In this document: positions 22,630 to 50,487 of the stretch, piece after piece
Numbering within the stretch: position 1 is the first letter of the stretch
Layout of the letters: each line of letters opens with the position of its first letter
Source of the DNA: Escherichia coli
Lineage (GTDB): Bacteria > Pseudomonadota > Gammaproteobacteria > Enterobacterales > Enterobacteriaceae
Length of the DNA: 64,000 nucleotides
NCBI RefSeq assembly: GCF_050320075.1
Contig: NZ_CP190018.1
Direction: 5' to 3' (one strand)
The notes under the pieces: model-generated
The model's database searches: none
Seen by the model: only the letters and a program-made list of their open reading frames with translations
What the model was told of the DNA's origin: nothing
Made by a program: the position numbers and the translations under genes

Positions 22630-23853
22630 GTGGAAAGGTTTGATGCCATTATTATAGGCGCTGGTGCGGTGGGTATGTTCTGTTCTGCGCTGGCAGGTCA
22701 GGCAGGACGCCGGGTTCTGCTGATCGATAATGGTAAAAAACCAGGGCGCAAAATCCTCATGTCTGGCGGTGGGCGCTGCAACTTTACCAATCTTTATGTC
22801 GAACCGGGCGCTTATCTGAGCCAGAATCCGCATTTTTGTAAGTCTGCACTCGCGCGTTTTACCCAGTGGGATTTCATTGATCTGGTCAATAAACACGGCA
22901 TCGCCTGGCACGAGAAAACGTTAGGGCAACTCTTCTGCGATGACTCCGCTCAGCAGATTGTCGACATGCTGGTGGATGAGTGCGAGAAGGGCAATGTGAC
23001 CTTCAGATTGCGTAGCGAAGTGCTGAGCGTGGAGAAGGATGATACAGGCTTCACGCTTGAACTGAACGGCATGACTGTCGGTTGCGAAAAGCTAGTCATC
23101 GCGACCGGTGGACTGTCAATGCCGGGGCTGGGCGCGTCGCCGTTTGGTTATAAGATTGCCGAACAATTTGGCCTCAACGTGCTGCCGACCCGCGCGGGTC
23201 TGGTGCCATTCACTCTGCATAAACCGTTGCTCGAAGAGTTACAGGTGCTGGCAGGCGTGGCGGTGCCTTCCGTGATTACCGCTGAAAACGGCACCGTTTT
23301 CCGTGAGAACTTACTCTTCACCCACCGCGGCTTATCTGGACCGGCGGTGTTGCAAATTTCCAGCTACTGGCAACCGGGTGAATTTGTCAGTATCAATCTG
23401 CTACCGGATGTGGACCTCGAAACCTTCCTGAATGAGCAGCGTAATGCACATCCGAATCAGAGCCTGAAAAACACACTGGCGGTTCATCTACCGAAGCGGT
23501 TGGTTGAACGTTTACAACAACTCGGGCAAATCCCGGATGTTTCGCTAAAACAGCTCAACGTGCGTGACCAACAGGCACTGATTAGCACATTGACCGACTG
23601 GCGCGTACAACCCAACGGCACTGAAGGCTATCGCACTGCCGAAGTGACGCTCGGCGGCGTGGACACCAACGAACTCTCTTCACGGACGATGGAAGCGCGC
23701 AAAGTGCCTGGGCTGTACTTCATCGGCGAAGTGATGGACGTCACCGGTTGGCTGGGGGGCTATAACTTCCAGTGGGCGTGGTCGAGTGCGTGGGCTTGTG
23801 CGCAGGATTTGATTGCATGTCCGAGGACAATAAAGTTGTACACAAAGCACTAA
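22630..23853 (+). CDS. yhiN: FAD/NAD(P)-binding flavoprotein YhiN (HI0933 family), C-terminus altered by element insertion
   Basis: GTG-start ORF with GAGAVG Rossmann motif; the last 12 codons and the stop lie inside the Tn7-like element end, and the native tail (gcg aag tcg tcc tga) is stranded at 50494-50505. Confidence 0.85.
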   Translation: MERFDAIIIGAGAVGMFCSALAGQAGRRVLLIDNGKKPGRKILMSGGGRCNFTNLYVEPGAYLSQNPHFCKSALARFTQWDFIDLVNKHGIAWHEKTLGQLFCDDSAQQIVDMLVDECEKGNVTFRLRSEVLSVEKDDTGFTLELNGMTVGCEKLVIATGGLSMPGLGASPFGYKIAEQFGLNVLPTRAGLVPFTLHKPLLEELQVLAGVAVPSVITAENGTVFRENLLFTHRGLSGPAVLQISSYWQPGEFVSINLLPDVDLETFLNEQRNAHPNQSLKNTLAVHLPKRLVERLQQLGQIPDVSLKQLNVRDQQALISTLTDWRVQPNGTEGYRTAEVTLGGVDTNELSSRTMEARKVPGLYFIGEVMDVTGWLGGYNFQWAWSSAWACAQDLIACPRTIKLYTKH

Positions 23854-23895
23854 AGTTGTAACCATTCTCAAAAAACGACGCTAATGTTGTATACT
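23818..23895. repeat. Tn7-like right end with three AA(A/T)GTTGTA repeats (candidate TnsB-binding sites)
   Basis: Repeats at about 23832, 23852 and 23884. Confidence 0.6.
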
Positions 23896-23975
23896 TACTG
23901 AATGTGTGGTTATAGGGTTGGAGACTATAAAATACACATATAGGTACGTATCAATGTCGTTTTTAGGGTACGATC

Positions 23976-24602
23976 ATGGCTAGGGGTAGGCGTCTCAAAT
24001 CCTATTTGGATTATGAAAATGCGCTAGGTGACGGCATAGGAGTGGGCTATGGCCAAAGTTATCAGCCCTGGCTTAGAGCTCAGGACGTTAAATCCCGTGG
24101 AAACCGTTCGATAGTCTTTGGCCTTAAGACGTTTCGAAACCATCATCTCCTTTCTTCTGTCGAAAGTAACTTTTTCTATCTGGCTGAGTTTAATGACTCG
24201 GTGATTGATATCCGGGAACAATTCCCACTCTTTCCTCTCCGGCTTACCCAACAAATAGCAAATCATCTACATTTTCAACATCCTATGGTGAGGGGAGTAA
24301 GAGGAGTACCTGTCGAAGTTCTGAATGTTATGACAACCGATTTTTTACTGACCTTGAGAACTCCTGAAGGCGGACTTCGATACAAAGCTATAGCAGTAAA
24401 ACATAACGAGAGCATACCTGAACGCGAAGCCCAAAAACTTGAAATAGAGAGGATGTTTTGGCAGTTGATTGATGTTGAGTTTCAAATTTATGTTGGCTCG
24501 GAACTCAATAACGTCGTCGGTAAAAACATTTGCTGGGCTACTTCTGTATTAAGAGATGGTTCTGAATTTTATGATAAATATCCTCTTGATAAAATCCGGT
24601 AA
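23976..24602 (+). pseudogene. tnsA: tnsA-like transposase endonuclease subunit, 3'-truncated by IS1
   Basis: 208-aa ORF with recalled similarity to Tn7 TnsA (YQPWL..., VIDIREQFPL..., DFLL motifs); the reading frame runs into the IS1 terminus and stops there, lacking roughly the last 60 residues. Confidence 0.7.
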
Positions 24603-47534: not shown

Positions 47535-47583
47535 CCCATATATCAAACTTTAACTCTGAAGAGGTGGAAGTATCTGACCAACT

Positions 47584-50282
47584 GTAAGCGACTCGTCAGA
47601 ACCGTATTGATATTTACTGAGAGCTCAGATCAACTTTCCAGGGCAACAGATCGCGTACCCGGTTTGCCGGCCAGTCCTGGATATGTTCAATGACGTAACG
47701 CAGCCACTTTTCTGGCTCCACATTGTTCAGACGGCATGTGCCGATCAGCGAGTACAACACCGCCGCATGTTCACCACCGCTGTCGGAACCCGCGAACATC
47801 CAGTTTTTCCGGCCTACGGCCACTCCCCGTAAGGCGTTCTCTGCGATGTTGTTGTCGATTTCCACCCAGCCATTACTGCAGTACACGTTCAGTGCATCCC
47901 ACTGTTTCAGCAGGTATGCGAACGCTTTTGCCGTATCTGAGTGACGCGACAGTGTTTTCATCTGTTGCTGTATCCAGTCATACAGTGACTGCATCAGTGG
48001 CGCGGCTCTGGCTTTTCTTGCCGCCAGACGCTGTTCTGCTGAACAGCCCCGGACCTCTGCCTCGATGGCATACAGTTCACCGATACGCTGCAGGGCTTCC
48101 GTGGTGATGTAGGTGGGCGCTCTTGCATGCACATCGTGGATTTTTCTCCGGGCATGAGCCATACACGCGGCTTCCGTTATTCTGCCGGATTCGTATAACG
48201 CCCGGTAACCACCGTAAGCATCGGCCTGAAGCACACCGCTGTAACCGGCCAGGTGATTTTGTGGATGGATACCTTTCCGGTCCGGACTGTACGCGAACCA
48301 GACCGCCGGGGGCATCTGTGAACCGGCGTTACGGTCATCACGGACGTAGACCCACAGCCGGGCTGTCCGGGTTTTACCGCTGCCCGGCTCCTGGACCGGG
48401 ACGGGGATATCATCAGCATGGACTTTACCGGGCATCAGCACATACTGGCGCAGGACGTCATACAGCGGCTCCAGCAGTTCAGCAACAGCACCTGTCCAGC
48501 GCCCCAGTGTGGCACGGCTCAGCTCCACTCCCTGACGACGGTATATTTCTGACTGGCGGTATAACGGCAGATGGTCTGCATATTTCCCGGTGACAACATG
48601 GGCCAGAAGCCCCGCTCCGGCATAACTGCGTGCAATGGGTTTTGAAGGTACTGGTGCCTGCACGATATGGTCGCACCGGCAACAGGCCTGTTTCGGACGT
48701 TGTGTTTCGATAACCTTAAAGGCGCTGCTGATAAGCTCCAGTTGCTCTGACACATCACATCCCAGAGAACTGAGTTCACCACCACAGGCAGGACAGCATT
48801 CCTCTTCCGGCCGGATAACCCGGGTTTCACGGGGAAGTGAGGCCGGTAACGGTTTACGGGCTGAAGACTGGCGCAGGGCGGATGGCAGTACCGGGTCATA
48901 TTGCTCACCCAGCGTTTCCGCCATTTCTTCCTGAAGTGCGCTGATTCGCTCCTGTGCTTCCTGTATCTGCCGTTCGGTTTTTGCACGAAGTTTTTCTGAG
49001 CTTTTACCGAACTGCATACGTTGCAGTTTCGCAACCAGCGCCTTCAGCCGGTTGATTTCGGAAGCATAAGCCGCCACCCGCTGTGAGAGCAGGCGGTTGT
49101 ATTCAGCCATCTGGCGGATGGTGTCCTGTTGCGTCTGCAACAGTGCCCGCAGGCGGGCGTTCTCATGAGCAAGTGAGGTGTCCATATCCTCACTTTACAA
49201 CGGGTTATATGCGGATTCCAGCGCGTTCCGTTCGTTTCGGGTGCTTCCAGTTGATACCTTCAAGAAGCATGGATAACTGAGCCGGAGTAAGGTGCACCTT
49301 GCCGTCACGGGTGACTGGCCAGACGAAGCGGCCCCGCTCCAGGCGTTTGGTGAAGAGGCACAGTCCGTCACTGTCAGCCCACAACACTTTTATCTGGTCA
49401 CCCCGGCGTCCGCGGAAGATGAACAGGTGTCCGGAGAACGGGTCATCCTTCAGGACGTTCTGAACTTTTGATGCCAGGCCGTTAAAGCCATTTCGCATAT
49501 CGGTGATACCTGCAACCAGCCAGATACGCGAACCTGCAGGGAGAGATATCATCAGTGGCTGCTCCCTTTTATTTCGCGGATAAGTGTCTGTAATAACGCC
49601 GGCGTCAGTTTACCTTTAAGCCTGAGAGTTCCGGCCGGCAGAACCAGCTCACAACACAGACTGTCGGACGGTGTATTTATCTGCTCTGGTTCCTGTGCGG
49701 GGGCCGGGATTTTATTATCCGGCTCCGGCGTTAACGTCACGGGAAGCAGTGCCGGCATATTTTTTCCGGAAGGCAGCAGGCCACCTTTCCGGTATTGATG
49801 GCGCCAGTTGAAGAGCAGGTTATCGTTGATTCCGTTTTCCCGGGCGATCTGCGCCACACAGGCTCCGGGCTGCAGTGACTGCTCCACTAAGGCGATTTTA
49901 AACTCATAAGGGAAGTTGGGCCGCCGGGGACGTTTTTTTACCACGGGGGCTTCGGATATAACGGTGCTTTCAGGACGTACGACTGGTACCGTGGAAAATT
50001 GTCCGTAAAGGCAGGCATCAAGTTCCTGCTCCGACATGCCTGCGGGCAAAGGCCACGAAAGGCCAGCTCTCCGAAAGCGCACGAACATACTACAAACTGT
50101 TGATTTTGGTACACCCAGGCGACGCCCGGCCACAACCCGGGGTAAATGTTCTTCAAAGTGAAGACGTAAAGCTTCAGTGATCCAGGTCCGGTGTTTCATA
50201 CGATAGTGTCCATTAAAAATGATGGACATTATTTTTGTAGAGCCGGAGGAAACAGACCAGACGGTTTAAATGAGCCGGTTAC
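47584..50282 (-). mobile_element. IS66-family insertion sequence (about 2.7 kb); tnpA 49552-50229, tnpB 49205-49552, tnpC 47614-49185
   Basis: Three-ORF IS66 organisation (225-aa, 115-aa and 523-aa DDE transposase), terminus GTAAGCGACTCGTCAG..., imperfect opposite end ...GCCGGTTAC, flanking 8-mers gaccaact / gaccaaca. Confidence 0.8.
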
Positions 50283-50419
50283 GACCAACACTGTCACGTA
50301 ACGCCAGATAACTACAAAAACACCTTTTTCCTCCTGTAAATTGCAGTTCCTGCAAGAACATCAAGGTATAATGTTGGAACAGCGTGTGATACACACTTAG
50401 CATCATGTTTTGTATGTGT

Positions 50420-50487
50420 TTTTTTAAAACTTTACAACTTTAAAGTCTTTTTCAGGTTAAAGGATACAACTTTAATGTCTCTACACA
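50420..50487. repeat. Tn7-like left end with TACAACTTT repeats
   Basis: Inverted counterpart of the right-end repeats (about 50432 and 50465), terminal ...ACA at 50487 followed by ATTGCA. Confidence 0.6.

Follow-up and report, generated by a model that had tools for sequence, protein, structure and literature searches.

A defective Tn6230-subfamily transposon carrying silver and copper resistance genes at the 3' end of yhiN in Escherichia coli

Tn6230 is a Tn7-family transposon that combines tnsABCD with a sil-cop region (PMC13049778), and its prototype is on R478, an IncHI2 plasmid (Peters et al. 2014, cited by both PMC13049778 and PMC11406308). Its published ends are the left inverted repeat (IRL) TGTCCGAAGACAATAAAGTTGT and the right inverted repeat (IRR) TGTACACAGACATTAAAGTTGT, with 5-bp direct repeats (PMC13049778). 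Table 1 of PMC11406308 gives yhiN as the attachment site of Tn6230, and yhiN/yhiM was found to be a Tn6230-only hotspot in a pan-genome study (PMC10121019). A sil/pco Tn7-like unit of pMG101 transposed in the laboratory into the chromosome of K-12 J53, between yhiN and yhiM (PMC8417528), and the cargo gene set is known as CHASRI (PMC4824010). Here we analyse a 64-kb stretch of Escherichia coli contig NZ_CP190018.1 (RefSeq assembly GCF_050320075.1; hereafter the window) that has an insert in the last codons of yhiN. We consider it very nearly certain that the insert is a Tn6230-subfamily transposon with sil/pco cargo, which entered the 3' end of yhiN by cut-and-paste transposition and afterwards underwent a deletion associated with insertion sequence (IS) IS1 and an insertion of ISCro1. 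The element belongs to a group that has already been described, and there is nothing conceptually new about it.

Insertion site and ends of the element

Reading the junction sequences directly, we found that the insert spans positions 23818-50487 (26,670 bp) and has TGT...ACA tips; these coordinates agree exactly with the 26.7-kb insert proposed by an earlier sequence-only reading of the window. The left junction is ...GATTGCA/TGTCCGAGG at 23817/23818 (in wider context, ...GGATTTGATTGCA/TGTCCGAGGACAATAAAGTTGTA...), and the right junction is ...CTACACA/ATTGCAGCG at 50487/50488 (...ACAACTTTAATGTCTCTACACA/ATTGCAGCGAAGTCGTCCTGA). To reconstruct the empty site, we removed the insert together with one copy of ATTGCA and compared the resulting 800 nt with all complete E. 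coli genomes. Many island-free E. coli chromosomes, in which yhiN and yhiM are contiguous, match these 800 nt at 100% identity, as the sequence-only reading had anticipated; at least 80% of the query is covered in 3,592 genomes. Insertion at the yhiN 3' end is orientation-specific, with the tnsA-proximal end toward yhiN.

At the left junction, yhiN is fused to 11 foreign codons and a stop codon contributed by the transposon end. The fused YhiN is 407 amino acids long and ends ...DLIACPRTIKLYTKH-stop, as compared to 400 amino acids for the native protein, whose reconstructed C-terminus is ...DLIAAKSS-stop. The native residues after the junction are A-K-S-S-stop, so the fusion lies 4 codons before the native stop and not 12, as had been claimed; 12 is the number of foreign codons read (11 amino acids plus the stop). 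The displaced native tail is present at the far end of the insert, from position 50488, where it had been predicted to be. In the canonical junction seen in other genomes, a stop codon in the transposon end is in frame, so that YhiN stays at 400 amino acids (...DLIAVRGQ-stop). The YhiN of the window is 407 amino acids long because an extra base at its junction shifts the frame.

The ends of the insert are those of a Tn7-like element. The tips form an imperfect inverted repeat in which 18 of the first 30 bases are shared, and the 64-kb window contains five copies of the motif TAAWGTTGTA, always within 75 bp of one of the two tips and always facing inward–three times on the + strand within 75 bp of the left tip, and twice on the - strand within 55 bp of the right tip. 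The number of occurrences expected from shuffling is 0.17, and none of 100 shuffles reached five. The terminal 22 bp match the published Tn6230 repeats at 21 of 22 positions for IRL (the tnsA-proximal end, next to yhiN) and 19 of 22 for IRR (the distal end; sequences in PMC13049778). The termini, their imperfect repeats with internal repeats, and their relationship to Tn7-family ends, all of which had been proposed from the sequence, are thus borne out.

Internal structure and loss of the transposition genes

Over 35 kb, the window differs from the chromosome of E. coli YZLc1-3 by two mismatches (99.994% identity), and we took gene content from the RefSeq annotation of that record. An intact, IS-free copy of the element, 32,409 bp long, is present at the same site in FORC_043; the parts that it shares with the window are 99.9% identical. 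Its gene order is tnsA (280 amino acids), tnsB (707), tnsC (482), tnsD (518), a 308-residue gene, a 99-residue helix-turn-helix (HTH) gene, a 608-residue AAA-TOPRIM gene, copM, sil, and pco. The window copy is collinear with positions 1-780, 9994-32211 and 32205-32409 of the intact copy, at 99.5-99.9% identity, and the ends of intact copies are 99.9% identical to those in the window.

Positions 781-9993 of the intact element (9,213 bp) have no counterpart in the window, where an IS1 stands in their place. There is no 9-bp duplication around this IS1, whose flanks are ...GATAAAATCC and TGAAACCCGA..., and an IS1 without a target duplication therefore marks a 9,213-bp deletion. The deletion takes TnsA residues 208-280, all of tnsB, tnsC, tnsD, the 308-residue TniQ-like gene and the HTH gene, and nearly all of the OLD/AriA-like nuclease gene (the 608-residue gene). 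It would have arisen either by IS1 adjacent deletion or by recombination between two IS1 copies. We checked KL53 as a candidate two-IS1 intermediate that would prove IS1-IS1 recombination, and found in it an independent and different IS1 rearrangement. Some 700 bp beyond the island there is another IS1 (window 51180-51947), inverted relative to the internal one, with which it has 97.1% identity. Through it, what is left of the 3' part of yhiM (DUF2776) is joined to a 5'-truncated yhiJ-like DUF4049 gene (flanks 50823-53034); this is a further IS1-associated deletion, adjoining the transposon.

What is left of the transposition genes is an inward-reading open reading frame (ORF) at 23976-24602. 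Its product contains the Pfam TnsA-like N-terminal endonuclease domain (PF08722, E = 1e-15) and is 100% identical in tblastn to residues 1-207 of the 280-residue TnsA of intact copies. The inward tnsA-like gene reported by the sequence-only reading is therefore real, but only as a fragment. By tblastn, no part of the window was found to encode TnsB, TnsC or TnsD, and the mapped deletion explains their absence. The earlier account had the type of element right, but missed both the loss of tnsB, tnsC and tnsD and the presence of ISCro1. The latter is a simple insertion with GACCAAC as a 7-bp flanking repeat at 47576-47582 and 50283-50289, and the uninterrupted sequence exists in a relative. It is 205 bp from the far tip and outside the terminal repeats.

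The proteins encoded by intact copies identify the family. TnsA, TnsB and TnsC match the corresponding Tn7 proteins in the Protein Data Bank (PDB 1F1Z, E = 2.5e-31; PDB 7PIK, E = 1.5e-49; and PDB 7MBW, E = 4e-37, respectively), and TnsD matches the Pfam families TniQ (1.7e-19) and TnsD (8.7e-15). An NCBIfam scan of the transposition proteins gave no match for TnsA, TnsB or TnsD. Together with the match to the Tn6230 inverted repeats and the place of yhiN in the literature, these homologs uphold the earlier proposal of an already described Tn7-like element that uses the 3' end of a gene as its attachment site. The 308-residue gene downstream of tnsD (L008:9175-10101 in an intact relative), which is absent from the window, has a TniQ-like N-terminus (PADLOC TniQ, 1.2e-5), and its product might be a second target selector. 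The intact 608-residue OLD-family ATPase-TOPRIM protein (L008:11317-13143) matches PADLOC AriA, of the PARIS anti-phage system (4.9e-57), and also GajA and Old (about 1e-23). The deletion thus cost the window copy a defence gene along with its transposition genes.

The possibility that the sil/pco block was instead moved by its internal IS1 or ISCro1 (as a composite or one-ended unit), or that it is part of an integrase island or ICE (integrative and conjugative element) such as Salmonella SGI-3 or SGI-4, has almost no probability left. There are two IS elements inside the block and another IS1 700 bp outside it, and sil/pco is known from ICEs in Salmonella. However, the boundaries of the block are Tn7-type ends and not IS ends; the duplication at the TGT/ACA tips is 5-6 bp, not 9 bp as for IS1 or 8 bp as for IS66; and the block has no integrase, no conjugation genes and no att-type repeats. 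Both IS1 and ISCro1 are internal, and both are absent from the otherwise identical copy in FORC_043, so movement by these IS elements was already refuted: an IS-composite transposon or an integrase island is ruled out by this IS-free copy with the same ends at the same site.

The preferred history, cut-and-paste insertion followed by decay, would run as follows. By analogy to Tn7 and to the intact relatives, a TnsD/TniQ protein would have recognised the conserved coding end of yhiN, and the TnsC ATPase would have relayed this target to a heteromeric transposase of TnsA and TnsB, so that the element was excised and joined to a target with a 5-bp stagger. Two later events can be read from the sequence itself: an IS1-associated deletion removed 9.2 kb, and ISCro1 inserted near the other end, before or after the deletion. 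The outcome is a fixed element whose ends and metal cargo are intact. Several points weigh against this history. The window copy encodes no transposition protein, and the mechanism is taken from relatives; the molecular details of TnsD recognition of yhiN are unknown, according to a review (PMC11406308); and a Pfam scan of the relatives' TnsB returned nothing despite its clear match in PDB to Tn7 TnsB, an empty result that we regard as a tool oddity. Lastly, the flanking repeat is 6 bp (ATTGCA) where the family norm is 5 bp, which amounts to 5 bp plus an extra A, or to a 6-bp stagger.

We infer that the window copy is a non-autonomous, defective remnant that cannot move by itself. Because both of its ends survive, it could be mobilised in trans if TnsABCD were supplied. 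Its cargo has fared better: the complete set silE-silRS-silCFBA-DUF411-silP-pcoGF-pcoABCDRS-pcoE is present, most of it identified by NCBIfam and the rest by annotation, which establishes the sil and pco content claimed earlier. All the sil and pco genes are full length, and the RefSeq annotation of the YZLc1-3 record marks none of the cargo genes as a pseudogene. To name the pco genes we followed the CHASRI paper (PMC4824010). The cargo probably still confers copper and silver tolerance, judging from the functions established for the SilRS/SilCFBA/SilP/SilE and PcoABCDRSE families. The locus is then a complete chromosomal copper/silver island with a dead vehicle, to be inherited vertically, moved by recombination, or mobilised in trans, for example from an IncHI2 plasmid copy.

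Table 1. Coordinates of the element, its parts and its cargo in the window.
Feature	Position	Strand	Evidence or remark
yhiN, BaiN/RdsA-family NAD(P)/FAD oxidoreductase	22630..23853	+	translation; RefSeq annotation of 99.994% identical record
Direct repeat ATTGCA, left copy	23812-23817		canonical ATTGC plus one extra A at 23817
Whole element, defective Tn6230-subfamily Tn7-like transposon, 26,670 bp	23818..50487	+	empty-site join; collinearity with FORC_043
tnsA-proximal end ('right', Tn7R-like), adjoins yhiN	23818..23891	+	inward TnsB-site-like repeats 23831-23840, 23851-23860, 23882-23891
Element positions 1-780	23818-24597		
tnsA fragment truncated by IS1, residues 1-207 of 280	23976..24597	+	PF08722; tblastn
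IS1, IS1B type, 768 bp	24598..25365	-	alignment to intact copies; RefSeq annotation
3' remnant (about the last 48 codons) of OLD-family ATPase-TOPRIM (AriA-like) gene	25365..25508	+	RefSeq annotation; tblastn
Element positions 9994-32211	25366-47582		
copM and sil module, extent	25677..38862		all genes intact
copM	25677-26027	-	NCBIfam above curated cut-off
silE	26174-26605	-	NCBIfam above curated cut-off
silS	26850-28331	-	NCBIfam above curated cut-off
silR	28324-29004	-	NCBIfam above curated cut-off
silC	29194-30579	+	NCBIfam above curated cut-off
silF/cusF	30607-30960	+	NCBIfam above curated cut-off
silB	31074-32366	+	NCBIfam above curated cut-off
silA	32377-35523	+	RefSeq annotation only
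DUF411 gene	35610-36050	+	RefSeq annotation only; no NCBIfam match
silP	36177-38624	+	passes NCBIfam heavy-metal P-type ATPase subfamily models
DUF2933 gene	38665-38862	+	RefSeq annotation only
pco module, extent	38896..47457		all genes intact
pcoG, M23 peptidase	38896-39633	-	
pcoF	39922-40371	-	
pcoA	40606-42423	+	NCBIfam
pcoB	42429-43319	+	annotation; no NCBIfam match
pcoC	43359-43739	+	NCBIfam
pcoD	43795-44673	+	NCBIfam
pcoR	44728-45408	+	annotation
pcoS	45405-46805	+	annotation
pcoE	47023-47457	+	
ISCro1, IS66 family, 2,700 bp	47583..50282	-	tnpC 47614-49185, tnpB 49205-49552, tnpA 49552-50229
Last 205 bp of element	50283-50487		
Distal end ('left', Tn7L-like)	50414..50487	-	inward TnsB-site-like repeats 50433-50442, 50465-50474, plus degenerate overlapping third
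ATTGCA right copy (50488-50493) and displaced native yhiN tail ATT GCA GCG AAG TCG TCC TGA	50488-50508	+	

Junction form and distribution among genomes

In FORC_043 the insertion has the form GATTGC/TGT...ACA/ATTGCAGCG, with a 5-bp ATTGC duplication as in Tn7. The ATTGCA repeat reported by the sequence-only reading does occur on both flanks of the window copy (23812-23817 and 50488-50493), but it is not the duplication that is the norm in this family, which is the 5-bp ATTGC. We used an 80-nt probe across the left junction to see how common each form is: in about 670 other genomes this junction is one base shorter than in the window (a 79-nt match to the probe), and the junction with the extra A was found only in YZLc1-3 and Ec-U3. 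The extra A would be explained equally well by a 6-bp stagger, by a base kept from the donor flank, or by the insertion of 1 bp at a later time.

Could the island have been imported ready-made, by homologous recombination (in transduction or conjugation) of a segment comprising yhiN, the island and yhiM, with the extra A as a later 1-bp insertion? Donors would be abundant, as about 675 genomes from many lineages have the element at yhiN, and island sequences are 99.9% identical between lineages. Nevertheless we think import very improbable. Both junction flanks are this lineage's own alleles, 100% identical to those of island-free strains, whereas in other lineages with the island, differences are found within 10-30 bp of the right junction, and the junction form is unique to the lineage, as an independent insertion would produce. 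The comparison favours independent transposition into this lineage over import, because the flanks match island-free strains and the junction is unique.

More tentatively, and with confidence somewhat short of even, we suggest that the one-base-longer junction is a genuine footprint of a non-canonical Tn7-family strand transfer and that, together with insertions further downstream, it reveals looser target choice by Tn6230. The footprint could be a 6-bp stagger, or one nucleotide kept from the 3 nt of donor flank that remain on the 5' ends after cleavage by TnsA. Copies in the same orientation but away from the canonical point are seen in EC7518 (87 bp downstream), in K-12 J53 (about 305 bp downstream) and in STK78-E (inside yhiM), and the 308-residue TniQ-like protein might be related to these off-point insertions. 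If the suggestion is right, then target-site choice by Tn6230 at yhiN–with same-orientation insertions downstream at distances of about 87 bp, about 305 bp and more–is looser than in the Tn7/glmS paradigm.

The element is carried by about 13% of complete E. coli genomes. Its first 780 bp (the end and tnsA) are present in 720 of 5,426, mostly adjoining yhiN; in approximately 675 of the 5,426 it is joined to yhiN at the same point and in the orientation seen in the window. The same 780 bp are also present in 608 plasmids, most of them conjugative plasmids of Enterobacter, Salmonella and Escherichia. Among 721 element-bearing E. coli genomes, 672 keep at least 80% of the module from tnsA to the 308-residue gene and 49 have lost most of it. 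The window copy belongs to this decayed minority. IS1 damage to the tns module differs, and is independent, in at least three lineages (the window, E1648 and KL53), with the sil/pco cargo intact. The window copy is thus one more case of the repeated erosion by IS1 of Tn6230's transposition and defence module, in which the selected cargo is spared.

Elsewhere in the window, an Rfam scan found two AgrB antisense RNAs near dinQ (11834-11917 and 12068-12151, - strand) and the shuA/chuA 5' untranslated region RNA thermometer upstream of chuA (1573-1604, + strand), which are normal backbone features of chu-positive E. coli; within the element, the scan found no RNA family. The region at about 58500-64000 contains ISAs1 and IS630 fragments, a C-terminal Rhs remnant, and orphan immunity-type genes (NTF2-fold, Sel1 and DUF6258) in the RefSeq annotation of the near-identical record. 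It looks like a decayed Rhs toxin/immunity cluster.

Comparison with known systems

The closest relatives of the window copy are Tn6230 and its subfamily (Tn6574, Tn6592 and others), with which it shares its end sequences and yhiN as attachment gene. Its left end and tnsA are 99.9-100% identical to copies on IncHI2 plasmids, and intact copies have the Tn6230 backbone order tnsA-tnsB-tnsC-tnsD, followed by the sil-cop/pco cargo, as well as the canonical 5-bp duplication. The window copy differs from them in lacking 9.2 kb, in containing IS1 and ISCro1, in being non-autonomous, and in having a flanking repeat of 6 bp instead of 5 bp.

The resemblance to Tn7 itself (TnsABC+D, with attTn7 downstream of glmS) lies in the heteromeric TnsA/TnsB transposase, TnsC and TniQ-family TnsD of the intact relatives, in the TGT/ACA tips with multiple TnsB-type repeats at each end, and in orientation-specific insertion at a conserved gene 3' end, with the tnsA-proximal end facing the target gene. 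In contrast to Tn7, the attachment gene is a different one, and insertion occurs within its last codons, replacing four residues, and not beyond the stop codon. A recognisable TnsE is lacking, intact copies have a second, shorter TniQ-like protein, and the similarity of their TnsD to that of Tn7 is no more than distant (E = 0.0027).

With CHASRI the island has in common the gene set and order of its cargo–silE, silRS, silCFBA, DUF411, silP, pcoG, pcoF, pcoABCDRS and pcoE–although that name covers the cargo and not the vehicle, the remains of which are defined here. The pMG101 Tn7/sil/pco unit in K-12 J53 is of the same element family and lies in the same yhiN-yhiM region in the same orientation, but it is intact (reported as 33.7 kb; PMC8417528) and is located about 290 bp downstream of the yhiN stop codon, about 305 bp from the canonical point, rather than in the last codons of the gene.

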